From: a virus
Virus record (IMG/VR): IMGVR_UViG_3300025030_001282
Location: 15,915 to 79,914 of that record
Reading direction: 5' to 3' (one strand)
DNA length: 64,000 nt
The position numbers and the translations under genes are program-made. Below are positions 11,167 through 34,633 of this stretch, piece by piece. Within the stretch, counting starts at the first letter, position 1, and every line of letters starts with the position of its first letter. The notes beneath the pieces were generated by a model. That model did not search any database, was not told the origin of the DNA, and saw only the letters and a list, made by a program, of their open reading frames with translations.

Positions 11167-11207
11167 TTGCGGTATTGGCTGGCAAAGCCTTACCGCAAGG
11201 AGCATTC

Positions 11208-12935
11208 ATGTTGAAACATAGCCTTTCCCTCCAGGGATTGTTTGAAGAATCGATGCAGATGCCGTCGGGGCTGATCGTCCCCAAGCACTCGGCCACCGAC
11301 TTCATCAAGTCACAAGCCAAGGAATTGCGCAAAGAGGAGAACAAGGCCCAATTTTTCTCCAAGTTCGCCCTCGCCCAAAACATGGTGTCTTACGGAGCCC
11401 GCGAAAAGCCCGCAGGCACCCCCATGATGCCCCTCCTCTACGAAGCCGCTGAAAAATCGTTTATCGACGCCATCCTGATCCGCGCCCGCGTTGACCAGAT
11501 GAAACGCATCTGGCAGAAGGCCAATAGCGGCAAGGCCAAAGAGGTCGGATTCCGCGTAGTCCACGACCGCCACGACGATCCGGACTACAAGGGGAGCAAG
11601 AACGACGACGAGCGCTGCAGGGAGATGGAGAAGCTGATCGCCAACCCCACGCCCGCCGAGTACAGCGAGCTGTACCCCCACCAGATCAGGCCCCACACCG
11701 GCATCAAAGACTTTGTATCCGTCTGCACCAAAGCCGAACTGATCATAGACCGGAAGGTTATGCTGCGCTACAAGCGCCGCGACGGCCAGGGCTATGCCGC
11801 CTACCACTGGCTCCCCGGCGAGACGATCAAGCCCGTGGACGAGAGCCTGAGAGCCTGGGCGAAGAAGAACGAAAAGGACGGGAAGGTCACCGCCGCCAGC
11901 ATCGAGAAAATGAGCTACGCGACCGGCTTCGACCTCGCCCGCTCGGCATACGTGCAGCTCGTGGACGGTATGATCGTGGGAGCCTACACCGACGAGGAGA
12001 TCAGCGTCCACATATCGAACCCCTCCGACCGGCTCAACCGGTTCGGCTACGGCACCAGCAAACTGGAGCTCTCCCTGGACGTGACCACCACGCTGCTGAT
12101 GGCCTGGACTTATAACAAGGAGATGTTCAAAACCAACTACCCTGAAGCGATCATGACCATCGCGGGGGACTTTGACGCCGAGGGGCTCCAGGCATTCAAG
12201 CAGCAGATGATGAGCGAGGCGGGCGGAGTCGGGAACAACTGGCGGCTGCCGATCATCCCGGCAGGCGAGATGGACAGCTTCAAGCTGGAAACCCACAAGC
12301 TGCGCGACACACCGAAGGACATGCTGTTCGATACCCTTTTCCGCATGCTGGTCATGTTCAAGGCAGCGGCATACGGAGCCCACCCGAGCACGCTGAACCT
12401 GGAGATGGACTCCGGCCAGGGCGGCGGCTCGCTGAATTCCCCGGACCCGGCAAGCGAGATAGAATTCAGCAAGGAACAGGGACTCATGCCCGCCCTGGGC
12501 GACCTCTGCGATTGGCAGACCGACGCGATCGTGAAGCCGAGGTACGACGACCTGAAGATTGTTATCGTCGGCCTGAATCCCGAGGACGAGAAGCAAGCGA
12601 CGGAAATCCGAGTACAGAAGGTCGGCAAGTGGAAGACGAAGAACGAGGCCAGGATGGAGGAAGGGGACCAACCGCTGGGTTTCTATCTCCCCCCCGAGCA
12701 GTACAACAAGCTGCAGGAAGGCGACCCGAAGAAGGAGCAGTACGACGCCAACCCGTGGAACTACCCGGCAGACGTCCCTATCCCCAACTACCTCAACACC
12801 TTCCAGATGCTGGCACAGCCGCAGGATGATGGAGAGGAGGACGACCAGGGCCAGCCAGTCCAGAAGGCGCTGCGCAAGGCCAAGCGGCCCGCCCCCGTCA
12901 AGTTCCTCCACATCGACCTGGAGGACCAGCTGTGA
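11208..12935 (+). CDS. Phage portal protein
   Basis: SPO1/Twort-like portal features (YG.S.LE, A.YG..P..LN..., SKEQGL.P.L, T.NE.R). AAGGAG RBS favours ATG 11208. Confidence 0.85.
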   Translation: MLKHSLSLQGLFEESMQMPSGLIVPKHSATDFIKSQAKELRKEENKAQFFSKFALAQNMVSYGAREKPAGTPMMPLLYEAAEKSFIDAILIRARVDQMKRIWQKANSGKAKEVGFRVVHDRHDDPDYKGSKNDDERCREMEKLIANPTPAEYSELYPHQIRPHTGIKDFVSVCTKAELIIDRKVMLRYKRRDGQGYAAYHWLPGETIKPVDESLRAWAKKNEKDGKVTAASIEKMSYATGFDLARSAYVQLVDGMIVGAYTDEEISVHISNPSDRLNRFGYGTSKLELSLDVTTTLLMAWTYNKEMFKTNYPEAIMTIAGDFDAEGLQAFKQQMMSEAGGVGNNWRLPIIPAGEMDSFKLETHKLRDTPKDMLFDTLFRMLVMFKAAAYGAHPSTLNLEMDSGQGGGSLNSPDPASEIEFSKEQGLMPALGDLCDWQTDAIVKPRYDDLKIVIVGLNPEDEKQATEIRVQKVGKWKTKNEARMEEGDQPLGFYLPPEQYNKLQEGDPKKEQYDANPWNYPADVPIPNYLNTFQMLAQPQDDGEEDDQGQPVQKALRKAKRPAPVKFLHIDLEDQL

Positions 12936-17410: not shown

Positions 17411-17656
17411 ATGAGTGCTACCATCAGCCATAACCTGGACGACGAGGAGCTGATCAAGGCCCTCGCCGCCCTGGCCGACGACTCCGGAATAAGCGAGGAG
17501 CTGCAGAAGGCCATCAGACGGAAGGCCTGCGACGACGAGCCGAAGGAGCCCAGGCACCCGGCTATGCGGCACCTGTACCGCCTGTTCCTGCGACAGCACC
17601 AGGAGGCCCTGCGGGATATCGAGCGCTACGCGCAGCAGATCATGGAGGAACAGTGA
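17411..17656 (+). CDS. Small head-associated hypothetical protein
   Basis: GAGG RBS; carries LIKA and LQKA motifs like the other head proteins. Confidence 0.6.
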   Translation: MSATISHNLDDEELIKALAALADDSGISEELQKAIRRKACDDEPKEPRHPAMRHLYRLFLRQHQEALRDIERYAQQIMEEQ

Positions 17657-20697: not shown

Positions 20698-22293
20698 CTA
20701 TGCGGCCAGCCCAATTTTGATCTGTGATCCGCCGTTCAAAACAGCAAATAGCGGTTTCTTAGCTTCCTTGTCGTAAGAGACGGCACCCTCGAAGGCCTGA
20801 GCGACAGACTGCGCCTCGCAGGTGAGTTCGCGGAAAGGCTTCGTGCCATAGTCTTGCGGCAACCAACCCTTGCCCCGGCAAGCCACGACGTTGAAGCGGC
20901 GCAGAATATCTTCATTCCTGAAGGTCAGGTGGATGGTGCCCTTTTTGTGCGCTGTGGCCTTGAAGTAGGTACTTTCCACGCCGGAGCTAACGCCAACGGC
21001 AAAGGATTTGCGGAGCGCATCAGAGATAGAAACGTATCCGGCCATGCCATCGAAGTAGTTCATAACCTTGTCGATATCGTCGAGAACCTCGGCAGCCTTG
21101 TAATCCAGTTGCAAGCCGCTGTAGCCATAGAACGGATTGCCGTAACTGGCCCGGATCGGCACAATGACGCGGCGACCGACCTTGAAAGCCTTGTTGGTTT
21201 TCCAGCCATTGAAGTAGTGGATGTTCTTCTGCCACAGGCCATCATCCCAGCAGTGCCGCACTGTGAACATGTCGAAGACATCAAGCACCGCTTCAGTCAG
21301 CGTTTGCTCATAGCCACCGATCAGGTTCATGACGAATTGCCGGATATTGCTTTCGGTGAAGTCCATGAAGCAGCGATCCGTCAGGGCGTGTTCGAACTCC
21401 GCCTGCTTCTTTGCGGTCAACCGGCTTTTCACATCTTTAAGGTCAAGCGTGCGACGCCAGAAGTCGACACGCACCGATCGCAGCAGCAGGTTCACTGCGT
21501 GCTGCAATTTCCCCGTGAGGTCTTCCGCAGAGCGCCCACCTTGTTGCCGCCCCCCCACGTCGTTCAACGTGAGGTATTTTCCGATGTGCCGATAGTTGCG
21601 GTAAAAGCCGGTAATCGTTTCCATCCCCACTTGCACAGCGCGGTTATATTCCAGGACCAGTTCCGAAATCGTGCGGCCATTGGACACTTCATGCTTTTCA
21701 GTGAAGGCAGCCTTCGACTCCTGAGCGATATCTTCAGCGCCAGCAAAAAGGTCATCTTCCACACGGCGGTCGATCACGATGCTGACCAGGGCCACCTCAA
21801 CGTCCGTGCGACGCTCTGCCAGTGAAAACCCGTTAGCAATGTATTCGATGCTGGCTCCGCATTCGTCCAGACGCCGGACTAAGAGCTTTCGGCTGCTGGT
21901 ATGCGGATTCCGAAGGGTCTCCGCGTTGAGGAGGAAAATAATCTGCCCCCGATACATAATGTCGAGAGCCTTGAGCAGATGCTGTTCCCCGTTTTCGAAG
22001 GGAGGATTGGCAATGATCAGGTCGAATTTATCCGGGCCGGAGTAGGCCAGGAAATCGGAATCGATCAGCTTGAAGGACTTGCCACGGAGGGTGGCTTGTA
22101 GTTCGGGGTCGCTTTCGATGGCGAAAATGTCGTCAGCAGAAAAACGCCGAGTGTGCGATGAAAGAAGCGCTTCAATGAGGTCACCCTTGCCAGCGGACGG
22201 CTCTAGAACCTTGACAGGGTGACCTTTGATTTTGCAGATCATGCGGGAGGCCAGGGAAACCGGAGTAGGGAAAAATGATTTGTTGCTTAACAC
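20698..22293 (-). CDS. N6-adenine DNA methyltransferase with a DUF4942-like C-terminus
   Basis: FFPTP, VLEPSAGKG (motif I), NPPF (motif IV); GWKTN and KKGTIH in the C-terminal part. Confidence 0.85.
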   Translation of the reverse strand: MLSNKSFFPTPVSLASRMICKIKGHPVKVLEPSAGKGDLIEALLSSHTRRFSADDIFAIESDPELQATLRGKSFKLIDSDFLAYSGPDKFDLIIANPPFENGEQHLLKALDIMYRGQIIFLLNAETLRNPHTSSRKLLVRRLDECGASIEYIANGFSLAERRTDVEVALVSIVIDRRVEDDLFAGAEDIAQESKAAFTEKHEVSNGRTISELVLEYNRAVQVGMETITGFYRNYRHIGKYLTLNDVGGRQQGGRSAEDLTGKLQHAVNLLLRSVRVDFWRRTLDLKDVKSRLTAKKQAEFEHALTDRCFMDFTESNIRQFVMNLIGGYEQTLTEAVLDVFDMFTVRHCWDDGLWQKNIHYFNGWKTNKAFKVGRRVIVPIRASYGNPFYGYSGLQLDYKAAEVLDDIDKVMNYFDGMAGYVSISDALRKSFAVGVSSGVESTYFKATAHKKGTIHLTFRNEDILRRFNVVACRGKGWLPQDYGTKPFRELTCEAQSVAQAFEGAVSYDKEAKKPLFAVLNGGSQIKIGLAA

Positions 22294-22841: not shown

Positions 22842-22880
22842 GGCAAAAAGTTTGATATGCGCTACGAAAGGCCGTAGAAT
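22842..22880 (+). promoter_or_regulatory. Promoter of the giant-protein operon, with the conserved motif at 22852-22867
   Basis: GGCAAAAAGT-TTGATA-17 nt-TAGAAT. Confidence 0.8.
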
Positions 22881-22907: not shown

Positions 22908-25900
22908 ATGCTGTACCTGCTGCTGCGCAAGAGCCAAATGGCCTTCGATTGGAACAAACCTGCCGAGAAGTCGGAACATACCGCCGAGCCCCACCACAAG
23001 GCATACGACCGAGTGACGGCCAGCGGCAAGCTGGTCCACGTCGAAGCCAAAGGCCCGCAGACCGAGGCACGCGAGAAGCTGGACCACGGCATGAAGATCA
23101 TGTACCGGACGCCGGAGATGCCTCGCCGCCGCAAGGGAACCATCACCGGCAGCGACGAATCCGGCTGGCATGTGACCGGGCAGCGTCAGGGCAACGTACT
23201 GAAGCCCTCCCAGCACGTCCTCCCCCGCGAGCAGATATGGACCATCCCGGAGCACGAGGCGGACCGGGCACCGAAGGGCACCCACGTAGCCGTCAGCGGG
23301 CACGGGCGCGTGCTGAAGCCAGAGATTGTCCGGGAACGGGCAGAGAAGGGATACGCCCGCCTGGGAATCACCGAAGACAAAGTGCTGACCCACCCCGAAG
23401 TGCTGCGCGTCATGAAAAACTCGCTGAACAAGCTCGCCAGGACCAATTCGATGATTATCGAGCCAGGGTTTAACGTGCAGAACGGCATGATCGTGAACGA
23501 TTCGCCGGAGTCGATGGACGCCTACGAAGCCTTCATGGACAGCCTGTTCAACAGCTTCCGCAGGCAGACCGCCCAGGCCCCCGACGAGATGGTGGACGAA
23601 TTCCGCGACCACCTGATGGGGAAACGCGACAACAGCCGCATATTCTGGACCGGGATCCAGGACGGCGAGACGGCGGCGCTGCGCTACGTGAAGAAGCGGA
23701 AACTGGAGCACCATACCCACGAGGAATTCAACACCTCTGCCGAAGGAGACTTCGAAGCCGGTATGCGGGAGATATCGAGCGAGACGGCGACCGCCCACCA
23801 CGAGGATTCCGACCTGAAGCGCCGCATCGACCGTGACAACGCGATCGAGGGAGCCCTGGCCGAGATGCACCCGAAGGCTGCCGAGCTGCTGCGCCGCCAT
23901 TTCGGCCTGGGCGATTACCAAGAGCCTCAGTCCACCGCAGCCATCGCCCGCGAGATGGGGACCACGAAGGAGAAGGTAGAAAAGGCGCTCACCCTGTCGC
24001 TGCAGGCCTTCGCCGCCACCAAGGGAAGCTCCGCCCTGCGGGAGTTTCTTAAATCGTTGCGGGAGGAACTGGATTTCAGAAAGGCCATTGTCTACGAGGA
24101 GGAGCTGCAGAAGAGCCACATCAAGCAGTACGCCCGCATGGACGGCATCGTGGTGCAAGAGCACCAGGACAAGCGCATCGCCAAGCACCCCGACCTGATC
24201 GCCCACGAGAACGCCCACGGCGACAAGGTACACACCGGAGCCGACCTGAAGCACGGCGCGGACCTCCAGGAGCACCTGAAGAGCCGAGGCTGGAAGCAGA
24301 AGGAAGTTTCCGCCGTGCGCAAGAAGGACGGAGCGAAGGTCGGCAAGAAGGAGGACATGCCGGAGCCGTCCGCGATCAAGGGGAAGAACCAGGAGAACTC
24401 CGCGCTGCAATCCGCACAGCGGACCATCCAGAAGATGCACGAAGCCGTGAAGAACGGCAGCGACCCGGTGGCCAGCCTGCAGGCGATCAACACCAGCCGT
24501 GGCAACCCGTACCTCGCCGCCGTGGACGACGAGAAAAAGAAGCTCTTCGAGCACTTCGGCCATGAAACCGACGACAGCGAGAAGCAGCAGAAGTTCGACA
24601 AGGACGGGCACACGGTGATTTTGGCCGACGACGGCAAGAAGGTGGCCTTCGCCGGAGGCGATATCGAGGCGAAGGGGAATAAACCGGTGGGCTCCCTCAC
24701 CGGCAAGAAGGAGGTCGAGAGCACCGATACCGGGAAGAAGCAGCCGAAGTTCATCACCGGGCGGCCCAACACGGCCTACACCGCGAAGATGAACGAGGTG
24801 AAGAGCAACTACGCCCTGGTCGAGGCGCACGACCTGACCGCCAGCCACACCATCCAGGGGCACGTGAACAAGGCATACCCCCAGGAGATCCAGCCCAGGG
24901 AGCGCGAGCGCGTTTCCAGCCAAATGCAGATGGCAAACATCATGAACGACCTGAAGCCCGAGCTGTTCGGCCACAGCGCCACCGCCTCCGATGGTGCGCC
25001 GATCGTGGGCAAGGACGGAGCGGTCGAATCCGGCAACGGGCGCACCATCGCACTTTCCGAGGCCTACAACAGGGGCCTCGCCGACAAATACAAGGAATGG
25101 CTCAAGGGGGAAGCCGAGCATTTCGGCCTGAAGCCCGAGGACGTGGAAGGGATGAAAAGCCCCATGCTGGTCCGGGTCCGGGACGAGGCGGACGGTAACA
25201 AGGACCGCGCCGAGTTCGCCCGCGAGGCAAACCAGAGCTCAAACCTGGGCAGCTCCCCCGCAGAGCAGGCCTGGACGGACGCCGACCGCATCGACGACAG
25301 CCTGCTGAAGAAGTTCACCGCCGACGAGGACGGCGAAATCTACAACGACGACAACATGCCCTTCATCACCGCGTTCCTGGGGAAGCTGGGCAAGAACGAA
25401 GCGGCGAGCTTGCAGGACGCCGACGGCGAGCCGAACAAGAAATGCATCGAGCGGATACAGAACGCAGTGTTCGCCAAGGTGTACGGCAGCTCGGTCCTTA
25501 CCGAGTTCCAGGCCGAGAGCGCCAAGCCGCGCATCAGGAACGTGCTGAAGGCGCTGAACGCCTGCGTCGGAGACTTCGCCCAGGTGAAAGGGCACGACGA
25601 CCTGGACGTGATACCGGACATGATGGAGGCGATCGAGTACACCCTTTCCCACCAGAGCGTGAGCCGAGCGGAGATGGAGCACACGCTAAAGAACGCCGGA
25701 GCCCTAAACTTCACCGGGGACACGCCGACGTTCAAGACGGACTTTGCGGTCAACATGATCCTCGCCATCACCGACCGCACCGGATCCAGGAACCGGCTGC
25801 AGAACGTGTTCAAGGCCATCAGCAACGAGATAAAGACCGAGGTGGCCAGCAGGGAGAACCCGGAGGTGGACATGTTTTCTGGACCGGCGCAGCCGAAGAC

Positions 25901-28900
25901 TAAAGAACAGGTGGTCAAGACCGCCCTGGAGAAGCAGGAGCGCCAGGAGATGCAGAAATCAGTAACGAGCGGGGCCTTTTTATTTAGAAAGGCACACGGA
26001 GGAGCACATGGCCGAGTTATCGGAAGAAGAAAAGTACAAGCGCAAGCAGGCGCTGCTGACGCGGGCGCTCGGGACGGCGGACAAACTGGACGCGGAGGAC
26101 GCGAAGAAGGAAGCCTCCGAAAAGGACAAAGCGAAGAAGCAGCGGGCAGAAAAGACGCAGGCCCGGCAGGAGGAGAAGGAGCAGGAAAAGGAGAAGGCCA
26201 AGAAGGACGCCGAGCCGGTTCTTGGCTGATCAAGGCCCACGTCGTAGCCTACAACCGCACCACCCACTCCGGGGCACTGGCCCAGGTACTGTCGCACGAA
26301 GACAGCCGGGTGAGCGGATACGGCGCAAAGCTGGCCAAGGTGAAGAACCCGAGCGACCTGCACAAGCTGCGCACGGAGCGCTTCGGACACCTCCCCCATT
26401 GGGGCAGGCTCGACGACCAGACGCGCCAGCACGTGCTGAACGCCGAGGACCACATCCATGACAGGCTCAAGGCCGAGGACTTCCACAAGAAGCTGAAGAC
26501 CGCCATCTCCGAGCACCCTGCGATGGATACCATCGACCGGAGCGGCTGGGGCCAGACCCGGCTCTTCAAGGCGCTGCTGCAGAAGTCGATGGGGAAGACC
26601 ATCTGCTTTGACTTTGACGGCGTGATCGCCGATTACAGCGACGGCTTTCAAGGCGTCGACGTTTTCGGCCAGCCGATCGAGGGAGCCTCCAAAACCCTGC
26701 ACGAGCTGCACGACGCCGGAGTGAAGATCATCATATTCACCACCCGCCAGGACACCCCCGCGCTCCGGGCCTACCTTGAGCAGAACAGCATCCCATTCGA
26801 CGAGATCAACAGGAACAGCGACCAGCCGGACCACACCAACGAGGGCAAGCCCATCGCCGACGCCTATGTGGACGACCGAGCCGTCAGGTTCGTGAACTGG
26901 CCCCTGGCAGCCGCTATGCTGGACCACACGCTGCGCAAGAGCGTGATGCACCCGGCAATGATCCTGCGGAAAAGCCAGATGTCGCTCTTCGATTGGGTAC
27001 CGCCCAAGCACGAGGAGGAGCGGACGGTACACGCGACCACCCGGCATCTTGCATCCGGCGCGGCGGTCGCAGTGAAGCAGCACGAGCGTAAGGTCCAGGT
27101 GGCGGAGAAGCCGAAGCCCGGAGGCACCAGCCTGAAGCACACGGACGAGAATTACCGCTACAAGGACGTGGGCCACGTCCCAGGGAGCCGGAAGGAGCTG
27201 GCAGCCGAGCAGGCCACCATGATCAAGCAGCGGGCAAAGACCGGCGCAGGCGTAGATTACCGGGAAGTGAATTGGGACGCCCTCGAGGAGAACCCGCGTG
27301 AGGCCTACGACCTGATCACGAAGGACTCGATCGCCAAGGAGGTGGATTGGGAGGCCATCAAAGCCAGCGGAGTGGAGCCCGGCGCAGGCTTCCTGATGTA
27401 CAAGCTCTACGCTGCCGTGGCACCCAAGCCGGAAGACAGCCCCCAGGCGAGGAAGGACTTTGTGTTCGGCATCAACGCCCTGCAGGAGCGTTTCACCGAT
27501 TGCAGGACCACCCCGGAGGTGATCGCCAAGATTCGGGAAATATCGGAGGAAATGACCGGCTTCACCATGAACCCGGAGCAGCAGAAGGAGTGGGAGCGCC
27601 TGGAGGCAGCATACCGCGAACCGGCGCAGACCGCCCGGAGGTTAAGCAAGGAGCACGACGCGGTATGGAACGCCTACTACAAGCCGAGCCAGCGGCTGCA
27701 GAACCTTAAATGGGACCAGGAGAAGCGGGTCCGGCGCGGCTGGAAAAAGGATCCCGAACTGGAAGCACAGATCGAGGCCCTGCAGAAAGACGTCGACGCA
27801 CTGTATCAGGTGGATCAGGCGTGGAGAGCCGCCAACCAAGCGGCTACGGAGCAGGCCGACAAGGCATCCACTGCCGCCTGGAAGGAACAGAGGGCCTTCA
27901 AGGAAAACGTGATCAACATCAACATCCTGACCCACCCGCTTACCAGAGGCTGGAACAGCTTCGGCAAGAAGTTCTTCAACGCCATCAACTACAGCAGCTA
28001 CAAAGGCTCCGATGCCTTCGGCACGCACGTGGCCACCGCCAGGAGCGGCAAGGTTCAGAATTGGGACTGGCTGGAGAAAGACACCAAGCCCAGGGCGGCC
28101 AGCAAGACCTCTGTGCAGTTCCAGTTGAAGGTAGCGGAGAACGTGGAGCGCATCGGCGGTGCTCCCTTGCCCAAAGCCGACTACGGCACCGACGACATCA
28201 AGAGGGAATTTAACCTCGCCAACGTGCAAAGCGGCAACTGGGTACTGAAAGACCTGAACGCAGCGAAACACCACACTGAGCAGTGCGCTATGGCCTTCCA
28301 GGACATGGCGGATATCCTGGGCATCCCCAGCAGCGAGATCAGCATGAACGGACGCCTCTCGGTCGCCTTCGGTGCCAGGGGGAGCGGCGGAGTGTTCGGG
28401 CCGGGAGCTGCCGCCCACTACGAGAACAAGTACCGGGTGATCAACCTGACCAAGATGAAGGGCGGCGGAAGCCTCGCCCACGAGTGGCTGCACTTCCTGG
28501 ACGACGTGGCAGGAGAGATCGAAACCGGAGAACGAAAAGGGCGCGAAACCTATGCAACCGATTCCGCGCCGACCACCCCGGTCCTGCAGGCGTTCAAGGA
28601 TCTGGCCTTCGAGATGGAGAACGGCGGCCACAACGAGTCGATCAAAATCAAGGTCACCATCACCGAGGCGGAGAAGGAGCACTGGCTGCAAAGAGTGGAA
28701 CGGGCACGTAAGAGCAACTTCTACGGGGCACCGACCATCCACATGATCGCCACAGCCAAAGACCTATCCGAGGCAGTGCAGGGCGCATTCGACGCCATGA
28801 CCGCAGGCAAGTTCGGAGCCGTGGGCGGCCACAAGGCCAAGAAGCAGTACGAGCTTTACCGGGAAATGGCCGTGGCAGTCCATGCGGGCACCGAGGGCAC

Positions 28901-29303
28901 CTACGATGCTATCGGATTTAAGACCGGCAGCAAGTACTACGTCGAGTCCCAGAAGATCGACGCGGGCACGAAGGGAAGTGGCTACTGGCAGAGCCGAAAG
29001 GAAATGGCGGCCCGAGCCTTCGCCGCCTACGTCAGCGACAAGCTGCACGAGCGCAAGCGGGAGAACACCTACCTGACCAGCTACGCCGACAACAAGTACT
29101 ATGTGCTGGAGGGGATCAAGCCCTACCCCGAAGGAGAAGAGCGGACCCGCATCAACGCCGCCTTTGACAAGCTGTTCGCCACGATCAAGACGAGCGGCAC
29201 CCTGCAGAAGGCCATGCAGAATTATGGCCGCGACCAGGGACGGCAGGAAACCGCCCGCCGCGTAGCGTACCTCATCCGCAAAAGAGGAGCGCAGGCATGC
29301 TGA
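22908..29303 (+). CDS. 2131-aa polyvalent protein: sigma70 region-4-like HTH, DdrB-like ParB, HAD phosphatase and LPD1/zincin-like domains
   Basis: LRRHFGL...IAREMG (~23845-24030); QPRER...DGAPIV...VESGNGR (~24800-25250); DFDGV...FTTR...KP...VDD (~26590-26900); AFGARG...INLTK..GGGSLAHEWLH and EMAARAF...YPEGEER (~28190-29190). Confidence 0.85.
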   Translation: MLYLLLRKSQMAFDWNKPAEKSEHTAEPHHKAYDRVTASGKLVHVEAKGPQTEAREKLDHGMKIMYRTPEMPRRRKGTITGSDESGWHVTGQRQGNVLKPSQHVLPREQIWTIPEHEADRAPKGTHVAVSGHGRVLKPEIVRERAEKGYARLGITEDKVLTHPEVLRVMKNSLNKLARTNSMIIEPGFNVQNGMIVNDSPESMDAYEAFMDSLFNSFRRQTAQAPDEMVDEFRDHLMGKRDNSRIFWTGIQDGETAALRYVKKRKLEHHTHEEFNTSAEGDFEAGMREISSETATAHHEDSDLKRRIDRDNAIEGALAEMHPKAAELLRRHFGLGDYQEPQSTAAIAREMGTTKEKVEKALTLSLQAFAATKGSSALREFLKSLREELDFRKAIVYEEELQKSHIKQYARMDGIVVQEHQDKRIAKHPDLIAHENAHGDKVHTGADLKHGADLQEHLKSRGWKQKEVSAVRKKDGAKVGKKEDMPEPSAIKGKNQENSALQSAQRTIQKMHEAVKNGSDPVASLQAINTSRGNPYLAAVDDEKKKLFEHFGHETDDSEKQQKFDKDGHTVILADDGKKVAFAGGDIEAKGNKPVGSLTGKKEVESTDTGKKQPKFITGRPNTAYTAKMNEVKSNYALVEAHDLTASHTIQGHVNKAYPQEIQPRERERVSSQMQMANIMNDLKPELFGHSATASDGAPIVGKDGAVESGNGRTIALSEAYNRGLADKYKEWLKGEAEHFGLKPEDVEGMKSPMLVRVRDEADGNKDRAEFAREANQSSNLGSSPAEQAWTDADRIDDSLLKKFTADEDGEIYNDDNMPFITAFLGKLGKNEAASLQDADGEPNKKCIERIQNAVFAKVYGSSVLTEFQAESAKPRIRNVLKALNACVGDFAQVKGHDDLDVIPDMMEAIEYTLSHQSVSRAEMEHTLKNAGALNFTGDTPTFKTDFAVNMILAITDRTGSRNRLQNVFKAISNEIKTEVASRENPEVDMFSGPAQPKTKEQVVKTALEKQERQEMQKSVTSGAFLFRKAHGGAHGRVIGRRKVQAQAGAADAGARDGGQTGRGGREEGSLRKGQSEEAAGRKDAGPAGGEGAGKGEGQEGRRAGSWLIKAHVVAYNRTTHSGALAQVLSHEDSRVSGYGAKLAKVKNPSDLHKLRTERFGHLPHWGRLDDQTRQHVLNAEDHIHDRLKAEDFHKKLKTAISEHPAMDTIDRSGWGQTRLFKALLQKSMGKTICFDFDGVIADYSDGFQGVDVFGQPIEGASKTLHELHDAGVKIIIFTTRQDTPALRAYLEQNSIPFDEINRNSDQPDHTNEGKPIADAYVDDRAVRFVNWPLAAAMLDHTLRKSVMHPAMILRKSQMSLFDWVPPKHEEERTVHATTRHLASGAAVAVKQHERKVQVAEKPKPGGTSLKHTDENYRYKDVGHVPGSRKELAAEQATMIKQRAKTGAGVDYREVNWDALEENPREAYDLITKDSIAKEVDWEAIKASGVEPGAGFLMYKLYAAVAPKPEDSPQARKDFVFGINALQERFTDCRTTPEVIAKIREISEEMTGFTMNPEQQKEWERLEAAYREPAQTARRLSKEHDAVWNAYYKPSQRLQNLKWDQEKRVRRGWKKDPELEAQIEALQKDVDALYQVDQAWRAANQAATEQADKASTAAWKEQRAFKENVININILTHPLTRGWNSFGKKFFNAINYSSYKGSDAFGTHVATARSGKVQNWDWLEKDTKPRAASKTSVQFQLKVAENVERIGGAPLPKADYGTDDIKREFNLANVQSGNWVLKDLNAAKHHTEQCAMAFQDMADILGIPSSEISMNGRLSVAFGARGSGGVFGPGAAAHYENKYRVINLTKMKGGGSLAHEWLHFLDDVAGEIETGERKGRETYATDSAPTTPVLQAFKDLAFEMENGGHNESIKIKVTITEAEKEHWLQRVERARKSNFYGAPTIHMIATAKDLSEAVQGAFDAMTAGKFGAVGGHKAKKQYELYREMAVAVHAGTEGTYDAIGFKTGSKYYVESQKIDAGTKGSGYWQSRKEMAARAFAAYVSDKLHERKRENTYLTSYADNKYYVLEGIKPYPEGEERTRINAAFDKLFATIKTSGTLQKAMQNYGRDQGRQETARRVAYLIRKRGAQAC
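26008..26229 (+). CDS. Nested +1-frame ORF (73 aa, K/E-rich helix) overprinting the giant gene
   Basis: GGAGGAG RBS at 25998-26004 after an AT-rich patch; genome-typical codons in this frame, while the host frame reads as G/R-rich filler. Confidence 0.65.
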   Translation: MAELSEEEKYKRKQALLTRALGTADKLDAEDAKKEASEKDKAKKQRAEKTQARQEEKEQEKEKAKKDAEPVLG

Positions 29304-30253
29304 TACTTTTAAAGAAAAAGCACGCATTGCGTGCAGAAACGATGCAAAAGGCGCGAAAGCTTGACGGACGCATAAACTTCAACGGCCTGGAGGTGTCGAT
29401 CGAGACAGGGCGCTCCCGTTGCCGGGTCTGGTACGACCCGCACAACAAGAGCGAGGGCATGTCCCGGATGGCGCTCCCCTACGGTTACATCAAGGGGACG
29501 CTGGGCACCGACGGGGACCACGTGGACGTGTTCGTCGGCCCGGACCACAGCGCCCCCGAGGTCTACGTGATCCACACCACGAAGGCCCCCGACTTCACTG
29601 AGTACGACGAGGACAAATGCGTCCTGGGAGTAGGAAGCCCCGAGGCGGCCCAGCGGGCATTCTCCGCGAGCTACAGCGACCCGCAGTTTTACGGCGGCAT
29701 GAGCATCTGGCCTTTCGAGGAATTCAAGGCGCACGTGCTATCGAGCGAGGCCAAGGGGCAGCCCCTGCGGAAGTCCGGAGAGGAGTACTGCAAGAAGCTC
29801 GGGGACCAGCTGGGCATCGATTGGAAGCAGGTAGACCTGGATGCATTCTGCGACGGCATGTTCGAGGAGGACGGCAAGCACGGAAGCATCGCGGGAGCCG
29901 CTAGGGTAGTGATCGCCAACCTGAAGAAAGACCCGCACTGCTACTCCGGGGAGAGCAAGAGCGGCAGGCTGCAGAAGGCGCTCTTCACCGTCGCGGAAAT
30001 CCGGGAACGTGCCCAGAAGGCATATCGGGAGGCCTGCACCGCTGCAGGCGGCAACTGGAACGATCTGAACCCGGAGGAGTTCTACCAGGGGATGAAGGAG
30101 GAGATGGAGCACCGGGACGTGACAGGAGGTGATCTGGTCCTGACCGCCAAGATCGTCCTCGCCCACCTGCGGGAAGACGCGAGCTATTACAGCAAGCTTG
30201 AAAGACTGCAGAAGGCTAGGAAGACCCGACTTCTTGCCGGTGCCTACTGGTAA
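29297..30253 (+). CDS. Inorganic-pyrophosphatase-like domain plus two DUF5661-like domains
   Basis: YGYIKGT.G.DGDHVDVFVG...YDEDK..LG; GMKEEMEH...AKIVLAHLRED..YYSKL plus a degenerate copy (GMFEEDGKH...ANLKKDPHCY). Confidence 0.8.
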   Translation: MLILLKKKHALRAETMQKARKLDGRINFNGLEVSIETGRSRCRVWYDPHNKSEGMSRMALPYGYIKGTLGTDGDHVDVFVGPDHSAPEVYVIHTTKAPDFTEYDEDKCVLGVGSPEAAQRAFSASYSDPQFYGGMSIWPFEEFKAHVLSSEAKGQPLRKSGEEYCKKLGDQLGIDWKQVDLDAFCDGMFEEDGKHGSIAGAARVVIANLKKDPHCYSGESKSGRLQKALFTVAEIRERAQKAYREACTAAGGNWNDLNPEEFYQGMKEEMEHRDVTGGDLVLTAKIVLAHLREDASYYSKLERLQKARKTRLLAGAYW

Positions 30254-30256
30254 CGG

Positions 30257-30571
30257 GTGGGCCACGACAGGGATAGCATAACCCAGCACGCCTGGGACCG
30301 TTTTCTGGAAAGGTGGGAAGGCAGACGCCCAGCCTGCTGGCGCAAAGAACTGTACCGCCTGATCGAGACATCGGTTTTCGAAGACCTGGGGCATGGGCAA
30401 GTTGTCCGGCTGATTAACCACGGATATCAGCCAGCGGTTTACCTCACCACAGAAGGCTGGCGCTTTGTGGTGGACAAGACCTCCGGGATACTGCTGACAT
30501 GCGAACGAGCGTATAAAAGGGCGAAGGCCCGAGCGCCCAAGGGGATCAGCCGGAAGAGGTGCGGGCGATAA
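30257..30571 (+). CDS. Hypothetical protein (T.HA..RF.ER motif; possibly an RNase-like fold)
   Basis: ITQHAWDRFLERW; GTG start right after the previous stop. Confidence 0.5.
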   Translation: MGHDRDSITQHAWDRFLERWEGRRPACWRKELYRLIETSVFEDLGHGQVVRLINHGYQPAVYLTTEGWRFVVDKTSGILLTCERAYKRAKARAPKGISRKRCGR

Positions 30572-30611
30572 AGGGAAGGGGGGAGGCGCTGTCTCCTCTC
30601 CCCTTCCCTTT
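30570..30611. terminator. Bidirectional hairpin terminator between convergent genes
   Basis: aaagggaagggg...ccccttcccttt inverted repeat. Confidence 0.7.
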
Positions 30612-31099
30612 CAGATCCTGAAGAACCCCAACTGCCCCTTTAAGGGATAGAAGGGCAGCGGCTTGATATCGCGCAGCACAAAGCCATACGGCCCCATGAA
30701 CCAGGGTGAATCCGACCTGTTGACGCAATCCACGATCTCCGCCTCGCCGATGATACCGCCGCGCTCAATAGTGCCCGCCATGATCTCCCTGCACCCCTTT
30801 TCCCAAGCCTCCGGGCACCGCTGCCGCACCCAATCCCAGGAACCGCGCCACTCGTCCTTCGTCACGCCTTTAGCCGCATGGATCAGGACGCGGCCCCGCA
30901 CCTTTGTCCGCCAGGAGCGGTTTTCAATATCTTTGCCAGCATTGACGATAAGCCACGCCCACGGCTGCCGGATGGAAAGGACCAGCCCGGTCGGAGCGGG
31001 ACCAGAAGTGATAAGCCCAGCAGCCGACGGCGCGGCTGGGGGGAAGAGACAAAGATCACCCACGAGACACCTCCTACACACCAAGATACCTACGCGCAA
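30611..31099 (-). CDS. ASCH-domain protein (true start may lie downstream of 31099)
   Basis: LSIRQPWAWLIV..GKDIENRSW...RG.VLIHA...KGQLG.F. Confidence 0.85.
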   Translation of the reverse strand: MRVGILVCRRCLVGDLCLFPPAAPSAAGLITSGPAPTGLVLSIRQPWAWLIVNAGKDIENRSWRTKVRGRVLIHAAKGVTKDEWRGSWDWVRQRCPEAWEKGCREIMAGTIERGGIIGEAEIVDCVNRSDSPWFMGPYGFVLRDIKPLPFYPLKGQLGFFRI

Positions 31100-31134
31100 A
31101 GAAAGGCCGCCACGGAAAATGATATCGGAAAAGA

Positions 31135-31175
31135 CAAAAAGTTTGACCGAGTGAAATTATTGACATACGCTACAG
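31135..31175 (+). promoter_or_regulatory. Promoter TTGACC-17-TACGCT, overlapped by the conserved motif (31160-31175)
   Basis: CAAAAAGT-TTGACC (31143), -10 at 31166-31171, motif TTGACATACGCTACAG. Confidence 0.65.
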
Positions 31176-31179
31176 CGAA

Positions 31180-31371
31180 ATGGCCAAGCCGCGCACAATA
31201 TACCTGCTTCGCAAAAGCAGCCAGGGCGCAGAAGAGGCGATCCCGGTACTGACCCGAACGGACCTGCCGCTCAGGTTCCACTACAAGGGCCGGGAAATAA
31301 ACATAGAGGCAACCCCCAAGGGAAACCTCGTAATCAAAGAGACACGCTTGACAGGGAACAACGGGGAGTAG
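31180..31371 (+). CDS. Small hypothetical protein, probably leaderless
   Basis: ATG lies ~9 nt after the -10 box; contains YLLRKS. Confidence 0.55.
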   Translation: MAKPRTIYLLRKSSQGAEEAIPVLTRTDLPLRFHYKGREINIEATPKGNLVIKETRLTGNNGE

Positions 31372-31400
31372 CCGAAAGGCAAATGACCCGTCCAGTTATA

Positions 31401-31433
31401 GGCGACTACCGGTACTACCGGAGTCGCCTTTTT
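31401..31433 (+). terminator. Intrinsic terminator-like hairpin upstream of the protease gene
   Basis: ggcgact(a)ccgg-tacta-ccggagtcgcc followed by TTTTT. Confidence 0.6.
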
Positions 31434-31449
31434 GCGTTTGGAGCCCGGA

Positions 31450-32391
31450 ATGGAAGCAGAAGACCAAGTCCTATTTGAATTGCCGGTGGAACTGGAACTC
31501 AGAAAGAGCCAGGGCAGCAGCACGCCGCGCCGCATTCTCCGGGGCTACGCATCCACCGCGAGCAAGGACCAGGACGGCGAAACTGTTTTGCAGCACGGGA
31601 TGGACTTTTCCCCGCTCCTGAAATCCGGCTTCATGAACTACGACCACCAGGGCAAGTGCCTGCAATGCCAAGTGGTGTCTGATCGCCCGGTCTGCCCCAG
31701 CTGCGGATCCAGAGCAAAGATGCCGATTATCATCGGCTACCCGCTCAGCGCCGAGATCCGGGACAAGGGATGGTGGCTGGAAAGCGAAATTTTCAACGGT
31801 GCCGCCGCCGTCGACGTCAACAGCGACCAGCTGCGGCTCGCAGACGAAATGTGGGCGCTCGGTATGGCCATGCAGAAATCTGGCGGTAACAGGAGCCTTG
31901 CCTATTCGGTCGAGGGAGGCGTCCTGCAGCGGCACGGCAAGAAGGTGGTTAAGTCCGTGGTCCGGCACTGCGCCGTTACCCACAAGCCGGTGAACGAGGA
32001 CGCAAGCGTCGAGCTGTTCATGAAATCCATGTGCTGCGGGCGCTGCAACCCGGATCACATGCTCTACGTGCCCGGCCACAGCTGCGGAAGCCATGCGGAA
32101 GACGAAGTGCAGAAAGCCATGTCCACCGAATCCGCCGCGCCGCTCATGCTGCAGAACCTGGACCGGGGCACCTCGGGGCTCCTGTACGGGATGAACCCGA
32201 CCGCCTGCGGCTGCTGCGATGAAAACTGGAAGTTCAAGAACGGAGTGGTGGGAGCAGCCAACCACCTTCAGAAATGCCAGGGGCTATCCAAGGACCAAAG
32301 CATATCGTTCCTGCGCAAAGTGATCCATAACGCGCCGCACCGTCCCGACCTTGCGGCGCTCGTCAAACAAGCCGGTCTCATAGGCAATTAA
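31450..32391 (+). CDS. Prohead (maturation) protease
   Basis: GYAST..KDQDGE.V.Q.G.D...NYDH...YSVEG...CAVT..PVN; lies before scaffold and capsid; GGAG RBS favours ATG 31450. Confidence 0.85.
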   Translation: MEAEDQVLFELPVELELRKSQGSSTPRRILRGYASTASKDQDGETVLQHGMDFSPLLKSGFMNYDHQGKCLQCQVVSDRPVCPSCGSRAKMPIIIGYPLSAEIRDKGWWLESEIFNGAAAVDVNSDQLRLADEMWALGMAMQKSGGNRSLAYSVEGGVLQRHGKKVVKSVVRHCAVTHKPVNEDASVELFMKSMCCGRCNPDHMLYVPGHSCGSHAEDEVQKAMSTESAAPLMLQNLDRGTSGLLYGMNPTACGCCDENWKFKNGVVGAANHLQKCQGLSKDQSISFLRKVIHNAPHRPDLAALVKQAGLIGN

Positions 32392-32410
32392 AGAGGGGAG
32401 GAATATACGC

Positions 32411-33151
32411 ATGGACGCAAGGGCTAAAGCCAAAAAACAGTACGACGACACGATGGCCGAGCTGGACCTGCTCGAAAAATCGCAGAAAACCGGCGATGAA
32501 GCTACCGACGATCTGGAGGCGCTTACCAAGTCGCTGGAAGCGGAACTTGCAGGGGACGACCCCCTGAAGAAATCCGGGGACAACGACGCGGACGACAAGG
32601 GCGGCAAAACCGAGGGCGACGAGGAAACCGAGATGGAGAAATCCCTCCGCCTCGCCGCCGAGGAAGAACTCCGCAAAGCCCAGGAAGCCGAGCAGGAGGA
32701 GTACGACGAACTGGTGAAGGCCAGCGAGGCGTATGCAGCTCTCGAGGAGACGATCCAGAAGTCCCACGGCGGGATTCAGGAGCAACTTTCGACGCTGTGC
32801 AAGAGCATGGCAGCCCTGACCAACCTCAACCTCAAGATGGCCGGTGTGATTACCGCGCAGTCCGGAGAGATCGCCACCCTGAAGAAGTCCCGCGAAGAGG
32901 ATCTGGAAACCATCCAGAAATCCGTGGCCACCCTGGGCGGCAGGCCGGTCATGCCGAACACTGCGGTCCTCGGCGTGAAGCTGGTCGACGGCAAGGAAGA
33001 GACGCTGACCAAATCCCTTTCCGAAATCGGCGACGACCTGACCAAGGCAGTCCAGGAAGGCAAGATCGATTCCCGCCACCTCTCGGTGTGGGGCACCTAC
33101 AAGGACGTCAACCGGCTGCCCGACGAAGTAAAGACGCTCATCGGCATTTAA
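32411..33151 (+). CDS. Scaffold protein
   Basis: Acidic coiled-coil between protease and capsid; 12 [LIM]xK[SA] motifs. Confidence 0.8.
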   Translation: MDARAKAKKQYDDTMAELDLLEKSQKTGDEATDDLEALTKSLEAELAGDDPLKKSGDNDADDKGGKTEGDEETEMEKSLRLAAEEELRKAQEAEQEEYDELVKASEAYAALEETIQKSHGGIQEQLSTLCKSMAALTNLNLKMAGVITAQSGEIATLKKSREEDLETIQKSVATLGGRPVMPNTAVLGVKLVDGKEETLTKSLSEIGDDLTKAVQEGKIDSRHLSVWGTYKDVNRLPDEVKTLIGI

Positions 33152-33193
33152 CGGTCTTACAACAGGCCTGCACTCAAAAAGGGAGGAATTAGC

Positions 33194-34633
33194 GTGGATA
33201 TCCAGAGTTTTGACATGATGCTGAAAGCAGGCGGATATAGCCTGACCGGGGACCAGATCGTCGACGATCTCCGCAAAGCACTTACCACCACCAACAGCGG
33301 CCCCGGCGGCATCCAGTCCGGCCCGCTGATGCTGGAGAACCTGGACTCGGTCATGACCGAAGTCCTGATCACTGAGCAGCATTTCAAGCTGTTCAACAAA
33401 CTGCCCAAGGTGCCGAGCGCCCAGCCGTACTACGAGTACAACGTCCACAAGGGCTTCGGCTCGAACCGTTCCGGTGGTGCAGGCTTCCGCCAGGGCGGAG
33501 CGCCGAAGGGCGGCACCAGCTCCTTCGAGAGAAAGGGCATCTACAACAAGTTCCTGGGCGTAAAAGGCGGAGTGACCCACCAGATGCTCATCACCGGGCA
33601 GAACGGCGGGAGCTTCGAAGACCCCACGGTCCGCGAAAACCGCGACCGCACCCTGGAGCTGCTGGAGAAGGTCGAGCGTGAACTGATGTTCGGCCAGAAA
33701 GCCATCCTCGACGAGAACGGCGAGGAAGTAAACTTCGACGGACTGCTGACCCAGCTGCTCGCCGACAACGGCGCGAACGTGATCGACATGAAGGGTGCGC
33801 CCCTGACCTTCGACGAGCTGGACGACGCCGCCCAGGATCTGATCACGACCGGCAAGCAGCCTTCGGTGAACGGTTACCAGATTCTGCAGAGCCCGCACGT
33901 TTCCAGCGGCCTCAACAAGCAGTTCGGCACCAGGAACCAGGTCCGCTTCAACAAGGACAGCGCCGTGAACGCGAACTACGTCCCCGGCCAGAGCATCAAC
34001 AAGTACGATTCGGAGTTCGGCACCTTCGAGTTCGACCACTCCATCCTCCTGCAGGAAGTGGAAGCCGCCGCTCCGGTCGCTGCCGCGCCCGCCAACGTTC
34101 CCGCCACCCCGGCGATCACCACCCAGCCCGCAGCAGCCGACGACGCCGTAGGCAACCACATTGCCGGGACGGTCTACTACTCCATCGCGGCCTTTAACGA
34201 TACCGGCGAGAGCCTGCCGGTGATCACCGACGCCGTCGCCATCCCGGACGCTACCAGCAAGGTGACCACCGTCATCACCCGGCTGGCAGGGGCCACCGGC
34301 TACCGCATTTATCGCGGCAAGCTGGCCGACGGCTCCGACCACAAGTGGATTGCCAAGGTGGCACAGAGCACCTCCGGCAACATCACCTTCGTGGACAAGA
34401 ACGGCTGGTTCACCACCGACGCCAACGGCAAGCAGTCCGACGGCCTCGCCCTGATGATCAAGCCCGAGGCCCGCGACATCGCCATCGCACAGATGACGCC
34501 GATGATCAAGATGCCGCTGCCGCAGGAGGGGACCACCTTCCCCTTCCTGCTGCTGCTCTACATCGTCAGCGTGATCAAGGCCCCGGAAAGGGTCAAGATT
34601 TACAAGAACTGCGGCACCTTTACCCCGGCCTAG
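33194..34633 (+). CDS. Major capsid protein (SPO1/A511-like, with an FN3-like insertion)
   Basis: L..ENLD, E...FG, FDGL...NVID.KG..L, Y.Y...A.N..GES..., Y.IYR; GGGAGG RBS. Confidence 0.9.
   Translation: MDIQSFDMMLKAGGYSLTGDQIVDDLRKALTTTNSGPGGIQSGPLMLENLDSVMTEVLITEQHFKLFNKLPKVPSAQPYYEYNVHKGFGSNRSGGAGFRQGGAPKGGTSSFERKGIYNKFLGVKGGVTHQMLITGQNGGSFEDPTVRENRDRTLELLEKVERELMFGQKAILDENGEEVNFDGLLTQLLADNGANVIDMKGAPLTFDELDDAAQDLITTGKQPSVNGYQILQSPHVSSGLNKQFGTRNQVRFNKDSAVNANYVPGQSINKYDSEFGTFEFDHSILLQEVEAAAPVAAAPANVPATPAITTQPAAADDAVGNHIAGTVYYSIAAFNDTGESLPVITDAVAIPDATSKVTTVITRLAGATGYRIYRGKLADGSDHKWIAKVAQSTSGNITFVDKNGWFTTDANGKQSDGLALMIKPEARDIAIAQMTPMIKMPLPQEGTTFPFLLLLYIVSVIKAPERVKIYKNCGTFTPA

Follow-up and report, generated by a model that had tools for sequence, protein, structure and literature searches.

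Genes of the window and modules of the giant protein

The window analysed here is a 64,000-nt stretch of viral DNA (bases 15915–79914 of a single 79.9-kb virus contig, IMG/VR record IMGVR_UViG_3300025030_001282; ~60% GC), and the subject is a gene within it for a giant polyvalent protein of 2131 aa (22908–29303). Judged by its genes, the virus is an uncultured myovirus with a head module of the SPO1/Herelleviridae type. An earlier note on this DNA had proposed that the giant protein is loaded into the prohead and cut there into separate effectors by the phage's own prohead protease, at a short motif (hydrophobic-x-Lys followed by Ser or Ala) that also punctuates the scaffolding protein. This motif is enriched in the giant and in the head proteins, with marked residue specificity, and within the giant it lies at module borders; the head module is homologous to that of SPO1, and one module of the giant to a protein packaged by phage P1. 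The in-silico tests named in the note (motif enrichment, border conservation, location in linkers, comparison with Herelleviridae) all support the view of the giant as protease-cut head cargo.

Nearly every gene in the window is on the + strand, as are all features below unless noted; gene identities come from PHROG and Pfam scans. The giant open reading frame (ORF) begins with an 8-residue hydrophobic leader ending LRK/S (a slash marks a predicted scissile bond). A GGGGG ribosome binding site (RBS) precedes its ATG by 6 nt, and upstream there is a TTGATATGCGCTACG motif. Sequences like TTGATATGCGCTACG recur at 22852–22866 and 31159–31173, shortly before the giant gene and a gene for a 63-aa protein, respectively, and may be late promoters or operators. 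Also just upstream of the giant gene, and in the same place in the relatives L001 and L005, is a methyltransferase with DUF4942 (20698–22293, - strand).

Module A (aa 9–382, 22932–24053, ~42 kDa) starts with a QMxFDW element and a tag-like stretch. It is 31–34% identical to the first module of the giants of L001, L004, L005 and L026, and has no Pfam or PHROG family even at E ≤ 1. The "sigma-4-like" label that it had been given has no Pfam support and is not retained; a sub-threshold match to HTH_62 was obtained in L001 only (E 0.0018). The first junction (24045–24116) consists of FLKS at residue 380, FRKA at 390 and LQKS at 400, spaced 10 residues apart. Module B (aa 403–1017, 24114–25958, ~68 kDa) bears a tag at its N-terminus and, at aa 629–758, a ddrB-ParB domain (PF18763, E 4.6e-36); it is 42.7% identical to P1 DdrB over ~285 aa (residues 208–493 of module B as query). 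It is followed by a linker (aa 1018–1109, 25959–26234), bounded by MQKS/FRKA and LIKA, which is of low complexity in the frame of the giant. Module C (aa 1110–1221, 26235–26570, 12.8 kDa) consists of a hairpin tag and then a helical domain; the AlphaFold model has strands at aa 1115–1118 and 1124–1127 followed by helices, with predicted local distance difference test (pLDDT) values of 74–95 by 10-residue block. A HAD-type phosphatase module (aa 1227–1344, 26586–26939, 13.1 kDa) is bounded by LFKA/LQKS and LRKS/LRKS. It matches Pfam HAD families (E 2e-5) and phrog_1238 (E 1e-28) and is folded in the AlphaFold model. A Foldseek search of the module C–HAD model against the PDB gave only weak matches of small-HAD type (2obb and 1xpj, E about 2e-3) and nothing for the tag. 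The last module (aa 1356–2101, 26973–29210, 83.5 kDa) combines a zincin-type HEWLH (aa 1858–1862) with an LPD1 domain (aa 2021–2095, PF18796, E 1.3e-21), and is followed by LQK/A and a 30-residue tail. If the 12 border sites were all cut, the products would be five folded pieces (42, 68, 12.8, 13.1 and 83.5 kDa), together with spacers of 5–81 residues and the 30-residue C-terminal tail.

Downstream is a gene for a 318-aa protein with an InPase domain and two DUF5661-like units (29297–30253; PF18823, E 4.5e-27; PF18905, E 2.2e-12). Its sites are in the leader, in the two inter-domain linkers and near the C-terminus, and three of the four lie in or overlap segments with pLDDT below 50 in the AlphaFold model (residues 1–22, 159–161 and 220–235). 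Next comes the 63-aa protein (31180–31371), whose 12-residue leader ends LLRK/S and which may be a small head protein. Nine genomes have it immediately before the protease, always with LLRKS.

The prohead serine protease is of the SPO1 gp3.2 type (31450–32391; phrog_1028, E 4.7e-33; 33% identity to SPO1, E 3e-32), with a 19-residue propeptide ending LRK/S. The ORF tool lists it as 31432–32391 with a TTG start, which a GC-rich hairpin and T run at 31403–31437 overlaps; taken with the starts in relatives, this makes the ATG at 31450 the most likely start. The NYDH His and the SVEG Ser, predicted to be catalytic, fall in the alignments at the His and Ser positions of the SPO1, P100 and ISP enzymes. 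Three Cys-rich stretches (aa 76–92, 201–219 and 259–262) are absent from these three phages, and the first, a CxxC...CxxC insert, is absent from L001 as well; they may be zinc-binding insertions. The scaffolding protein (246 aa, 32411–33151) carries 12 sites and is 27% identical to the SPO1 scaffold (E 8e-9), with no PHROG or Pfam family match. The major capsid protein (MCP; 33194–34633; phrog_752, E 5e-47; 26% identity to the SPO1 MCP, E 4e-32) has a predicted maturation cut after Lys28 (LRK/A) and an earlier MLK/A site, both conserved in all 10 MCPs compared. It also aligns to SPO1 gp6.1 (PDB 9vel, E 1e-29), with LRKA over LNKA. The portal gene lies well upstream of the giant (11175–12935; PHROG portal families; 25% identity to the SPO1 portal, E 7e-22), and predicted trimming sites are found near both of its ends (FIKS at residue 43 and LRKA at residue 566 of 586). 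Other head and tail genes in the window encode a sheath, a lytic tail protein that is likely the tape measure, and baseplate proteins.

Distribution of the motif and its place in the cargo proteins

For each called protein, the number of [LIMF]xK[SA] motifs was set against 2000 shuffles of that protein that preserved its composition. The scaffold has 12 copies against 0.8 expected, a number reached in none of the shuffles. The giant has 13 (4.83 expected, p=0.0005), the InPase protein four (0.70 expected, p=0.0055) and the protease four (0.60 expected, p=0.0015), and nearly all of the remaining ~60 proteins of the window have none or one. Every motif listed in the earlier note is present where it had been placed, including exactly 12 in the scaffold, MLKA at residue 9 and LRKA at residue 26 of the MCP, and FIKS at 43 and VQKA/LRKA at 562/566 of the portal. 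To the LRKS, FMKS and VQKA reported for the protease can be added LLKS, MQKS and VVKS; the 13th motif of the giant, beyond the 12 at borders, is LPKA 1754, which the note had already listed among its caveats. The portal sites are not significant by themselves (3 against 1.44), and both are conserved in position in L031 and L034. The sheath at first appeared to be a further substrate, with four motifs against 0.96 expected (p=0.015), but its relatives have none or one and the excess is put down to chance. An 81-aa ORF at 17411–17656, with no family match, has two sites, LIKA and LQKA (p=0.01 by shuffling); it could be a further small substrate of the protease, or the sites could have arisen by chance.

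About a dozen related viral contigs were identified by profile scans with the protease and MCP, at least two of which, the records holding L001 and L017, are classed as proviruses by IMG/VR, with record numbers that hint at bacterial isolate genomes; a profile scan of genome contigs with the protease gave no relatives. For a pooled test of the window and nine relatives (1000 shuffles), the giants, the InPase proteins and the small leader protein were taken together as cargo. Scaffolds had 111 motifs (7.4 expected), proteases 59 (5.6 expected), MCPs 21 (7.5 expected) and cargo 85 (29.0 expected), none of these counts being reached in any shuffle. Neck and tail proteins, with 62 against 55.2 expected, were not significantly enriched (p=0.19). 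Genome by genome, there are 8–13 sites in the scaffold, 6–9 in the protease, 2–3 in the MCP and 10–13 in complete giants, with tail proteins at background. The comparison of head with tail that the note had suggested thus comes out in favour of its proposal.

The signal is residue-specific, with Lys at P1 and Ser or Ala at P1'. After hydrophobic-x-Lys in cargo proteins there are 51 Ser (12.6 expected) and 34 Ala (23.7 expected), while in tail proteins Ser follows 25 times, against 24.6 expected. Conversely, the residue before Ser or Ala in cargo is Lys 85 times (34 expected), and Arg is not enriched in that position (14 against 30).

Several lines of comparison place the sites at module borders, as read from sequence alignments and predicted structures. 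The HAD module follows module A in L001, L004, L005 and L026 and module C in the window. In L001 the C-terminus of the giant carries a fused InPase, directly behind LIKA; elsewhere InPase has a gene of its own. L007 encodes the LPD1 module separately, as an 804-aa protein that has a leader, a site and a tag to itself. The ends of rearranged blocks are within 0.5–3.5 residues of a predicted scissile bond in six cases of six; those at the first junction, at residues 393 and 400, are 0.5 and 2.5 residues away. Just 4.7% of the residues of the giant are that close to a site, and for three independent joints the probability of this by chance is roughly 1e-4. Sites also flank Pfam domains in relatives. 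In the L022 giant, SNF2 (230–484) and ART-PolyVal (725–845) are separated by a site at 675, with another at 852, and in a second L022 protein a site at 158 lies between InPase (23–146) and topoisomerase IB (212–435). In the AlphaFold model of aa 1100–1420 of the window's giant (mean pLDDT 64), a hairpin comes right after LIKA, followed by a confident helical domain; LFKA/LQKS is on a low-confidence helix before the HAD fold, and LRKS/LRKS is at and just beyond its C-terminal helix. The location at domain boundaries and its conservation in homologues, both of which had been put forward as checks, are therefore upheld, with modules shuffled, fused and split at the sites. That modules move in this way is counted here in favour of cutting by the protease. 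Joints in the giant typically have two or three sites at ~10-residue spacing, as in the scaffold.

The linker between modules B and C has an unusual feature. A 73-aa Lys/Glu-rich ORF with a GGAGGAG RBS-like sequence upstream is overprinted in the +1 frame (26008–26229, giant aa 1029–1109). Across the 81 residues between FRKA and LIKA, the GC content at third codon positions is 0.28–0.40 in the frame of the giant, against 0.85 in the +1 frame. Conservation of the +1 peptide extends to L001, L004 and L005 (E 1e-13 to 4e-15) and is stronger than that of the giant-frame translation; in each genome the peptide is in the +1 frame relative to the local giant and has an RBS-like sequence. The giant frame is open across the +1 ORF in all four genomes, for which the chance would be roughly 5% per genome (an estimate of our own rather than a computed value). 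A frameshift or a two-gene reading of the giant, prompted by the +1 ORF, was accordingly set aside, since frame 0 is open across the linker in four diverged genomes. In the giant frame the linker is plainly a disposable spacer, with sites on both sides.

Among 22 giants, InPase proteins and small proteins, 15 have a leader of 8–40 residues ending in hydrophobic-x-Lys/Ser or Ala. Four of the other seven are ORFs truncated at the 5' end, and a fifth was called from too early a start. Stand-alone cargo genes likewise keep an N-terminal hydrophobic leader and site. Near the portal genes of two genomes (G002 and G003) are cargo-like ORFs, L032 and L033, with an acidic, scaffold-like leader and then L-x-K-S. 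After the site they have QMSLF and QMGFDF, respectively, related to the QMxFDW of the window, and a tag-like stretch is present only in the L032 ORF. Cargo genes are thus not confined to the block next to the protease.

Directly after many of the sites is a 22-residue tag (H-V/I-x-x-Y/H-x-R-x-x-x-S-G-x-x-x-x-V-x-x-H-E/D-D), modelled as a beta hairpin; in the window it is found at 26235–26310 and at giant aa 403–425. A profile of the tag and module C, run against 1.84 billion representative proteins, recovered 62 proteins with 81 tags. By regular expression 77 of these are directly preceded by [LIMFV]xK[SA], and so are the other four on inspection, the pattern having been mis-registered. Ten of the proteins scanned with Pfam are polyvalent, with Zeta toxin, SAM lyase, ART-PolyVal, InPase, DUF5661, ddrB-ParB and HAD domains and tags between them; topoisomerase IB is another of the effector domains that tags separate. 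The tag itself matched no Pfam family in module C or in these ten proteins, a 34-residue version had no tblastn match in cultured phages, and searches for related loci with two of the tag-bearing library proteins found none. Site and tag thus form a strict cassette, and a separate tag for each module makes sense if the modules become separate molecules.

Comparison with known head and cargo systems

The nearest known relatives of the head module are in SPO1 and other Herelleviridae, where protease gp3.2, scaffold gp3.3, MCP gp6.1 and the portal are homologous to those of the window (25–33% identity) and x-x-Lys/Ser or Ala is likewise found in the scaffold, the protease propeptide and the MCP N-terminus. 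The SPO1 scaffold has 9–11 hydrophobic-x-K-S motifs (0.7–1.3 expected), and the leader of its protease ends ILK/S just before a conserved GYAS block. ISP has the same pattern, and P100, which is A511-like, a looser x-x-K-S version. The Glu-type motif [LIMF]xE[SAG], tested in SPO1 head proteins only, is not enriched there. The comparison drawn earlier with Herelleviridae, by way of Listeria phage A511, is sound. The ALKS-FTT string is present in P100 Cps and the head modules are homologous; the A511 capsid protein is reportedly cut between Lys and Ser (Loessner and Scherer, 1995). Literature searches for a Herelleviridae cleavage site gave nothing usable. By homology, the Lys/Ser code would be ancestral to the SPO1-type head and belong to a known kind of head maturation.

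There are also clear differences. The phage of the window has a genome of ~80 kb with 60% GC and at least two provirus relatives, and ~18 kb of other genes, including that of the giant, separate portal and protease. A megablast search of 50,697 phage records with the whole region as query turned up no close cultured phage. The best MCP match among cultured phages is to a Bacillus phage at 29% identity, and the best cultured MCP and protease matches are all to Firmicutes Herelleviridae, at 25–36%.

The internal proteins IPI–III and Alt of T4, and the ejection proteins of phiKZ and SPN3US, enter the prohead by means of a short N-terminal leader that ends in a protease site, and are later injected. 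Their proteases are of another family, with the code Leu-x-Glu or Ser/Ala/Gly-x-Glu; the protease of the window is of the SPO1 gp3.2 type with a Lys code, not of the gp21 family with Leu-x-Glu. The system described here works like this family of cargo proteins with capsid-targeting sequences, but is not a member of it. In T4, phiKZ and SPN3US the prohead proteases remove N-terminal propeptides of cargo only, and splitting into several retained products has not been reported (PMC10052503).

The giant itself belongs with the polyvalent proteins, in which many unrelated effector domains are joined in one late-gene polypeptide, with predicted co-delivery with the DNA (Iyer, Burroughs, Anand, de Souza and Aravind, 2017; PMC5512222). 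This placement, in line with the earlier note, is confirmed by disparate domains in a single 2131-aa ORF (ddrB-ParB, HAD, and LPD1 with HExxH), by the position of the gene between the portal and the protease–scaffold–MCP block of a myovirus, and by the hallmark families present: PF18763 ddrB-ParB, PF18796 LPD1 and PF18823 InPase in the window and PF18760 ART-PolyVal in relatives. Rapid domain shuffling is a further point in common. In the published model processing is by a built-in zincin; here, in contrast, the joints are in the code of the head-maturation protease and are kept in relatives without the zincin, and a conserved hairpin tag follows many of them.

P1 heads hold giant anti-restriction proteins, among them DarB, which has an N-terminal capsid localisation signal (PMC9024508), and the DdrB that is 42.7% identical to module B is a Dar protein present in those heads (PMC9024508, PMC12810830). 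In P1, however, these proteins are encoded by separate genes, only N-terminal trimming of DarA and an undefined processing of DdrB have been reported, and the protease cuts after Glu (MCP E120/S121). The Lys code therefore appears to go with the SPO1-type protease and not with the cargo family. General Pfam and PHROGs scans of neighbouring genes recognised no DarA, Hdf, DarB or Ulx, for which no aimed search was made. Acinetobacter phage ABMM1 was considered as a covariation test and rejected, its DdrB-like gene having no comparable head module around it.

Proposed cleavage in the prohead and its alternatives

From these observations we infer cleavage, packaging, injection with the DNA and a role for the tag, as follows. 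The prohead serine protease would cut after Lys in hydrophobic-x-Lys/Ser or Ala, chopping the scaffold into peptides of 10–25 residues, removing 28 residues from the capsid protein and trimming the portal and the protease itself. The giant, the InPase/DUF5661 protein and the 63-residue protein would enter the prohead as substrates; their short hydrophobic leader ending in a site, comparable to the capsid-targeting sequence of T4, is taken as the sign of this. At its clustered junctions the giant would be cut into module A (42 kDa), the DdrB-like ParB module (68 kDa), module C (13 kDa), the HAD module (13 kDa) and the zincin/LPD1 module (84 kDa), with the short spacers discarded. Several of the products would begin with the hairpin tag (Ser/Ala-His-Val-x-x-Tyr-x-Arg ... 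His-Glu-Asp), which could be the retention or ejection signal of each released piece. Taken as a whole, the loading of the giant into the prohead and its cutting by the prohead protease into separately injected effectors is considered fairly probable.

Some observations weigh against this. LPKA 1754 and several V-x-K-A matches fall inside modules, as the earlier note had cautioned. The sites of the giant are in part duplicated cassettes of site plus tag or site plus QMxLFDW, so that the 13 are not 13 independent events, and Lys-Ser/Ala could be conserved within the tag element for structural reasons. The giant also has a zincin of its own, with HExxH, by which it could be processed in cis. The quality of the AlphaFold models is moderate (mean pLDDT 64), the megablast search found no cultured member of the group, and the best MCP and protease matches are distant.

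If the joint motif were instead a structural or recombination cassette of linker and hairpin tag, never cut, the giant would act or be packaged as one chain, and the likeness to the scaffold would be incidental or reflect a shared style of helical linker. The motif is indeed an integral, invariant N-terminal part of a ~26-residue element in all 81 library tags, and junctions of the giant are duplicated in this manner (LRKS-QMxFDW twice, L-x-K-S/A and then H-V/I three times); the N4 virion RNA polymerase and P1 DarB are giant proteins that are packaged uncut (PMC5512222, PMC9024508). At least half of the sites in the giant nevertheless have no tag (FLKS, FRKA, MQKS, FRKA, LFKA, LQKS before HAD, LRKS 1342 and LQKA 2099), nor do any of the four in the InPase protein, and the enrichment of Lys at P1 and Ser or Ala at P1' is general across cargo proteins. 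Scaffolds, which relatives of this lineage degrade, have the same motif at 15 times the expected frequency, and the two or three sites per joint have the ~10-residue spacing seen there. An uncut cassette is on these grounds improbable, though it deserves more weight than the two alternatives that follow.

The giant might also be cut in the prohead as an auxiliary core or scaffold component, its pieces mostly expelled or inert rather than injected. Its junction stretches resemble scaffold segments in being acidic and helical and in repeating the sites, the 81-residue linker is plainly disposable, and in P1 the head-internal anti-restriction proteins DarA and Hdf double as morphogenetic factors (PMC12810830). 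We regard this as unlikely. As enzymes, the modules are of kinds that injected polyvalent proteins typically carry (ddrB-ParB, HAD, InPase and zincin in the window; ART, SNF2, topoisomerase IB, Zeta toxin and SAM lyase in relatives), and the set changes fast from one relative to another, as would be expected of conflict genes and not of assembly parts; folded products of 13–84 kDa, moreover, are too large to leave through capsid pores. Self-processing in cis, with the joint motif as the site of the giant's own zincin-like metallopeptidase, has in its favour the HEWLH at aa 1858–1862 of the LPD1-bearing module and the published polyvalent model, which invokes processing by a metallopeptidase domain such as the one carried by P1 DdrB (PMC5512222). 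It is very unlikely all the same. Three relatives rated 100% complete by CheckV match only the first 60–80 residues of the 746-aa module, a shared N-terminal element, and yet keep the joints, which argues against a built-in metallopeptidase as the agent. The zincin module is itself bounded by sites, and the same motif saturates the scaffold, protease and MCP N-terminus, including those of SPO1, P100 and ISP.

A more speculative extension of cleavage by the prohead protease concerns the combination of site and tag. Possibly, but doubtfully, this is a portable "cut-and-keep" address: the protease would free the module, and the exposed hairpin would hold it on the DNA or the capsid wall and carry it through the tail. 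If so, any enzyme placed behind the cassette would become an independently injected effector, which would account for how freely Zeta toxin, SAM lyase, ART, topoisomerase IB, ParB, HAD and InPase modules are shuffled, and the cassette would amount to a programmable cargo-loading signal.

Nothing equivalent to a protease-cut polyvalent or cargo polyprotein was found in the searchable literature. Widespread as polyvalent proteins are, how a single chain of disparate enzymes becomes a set of working parts has so far been guessed at, the published proposal being a built-in zincin. Joints written in the capsid protease's own code suggest a concrete mechanism, in which one gene product with one leader would yield many effectors cut inside the head. 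With at least two relatives classed as proviruses, the prediction may be testable at the bench. A cut-site rule of this kind would make the boundaries of mature effectors readable from sequence, which could aid in finding anti-defence enzymes, and the leader, the site and the tag could serve as parts for getting chosen proteins into phage capsids. If the mechanism is correct, the role of the prohead protease would extend from the trimming of propeptides to polyprotein processing, which is otherwise typical of RNA viruses.

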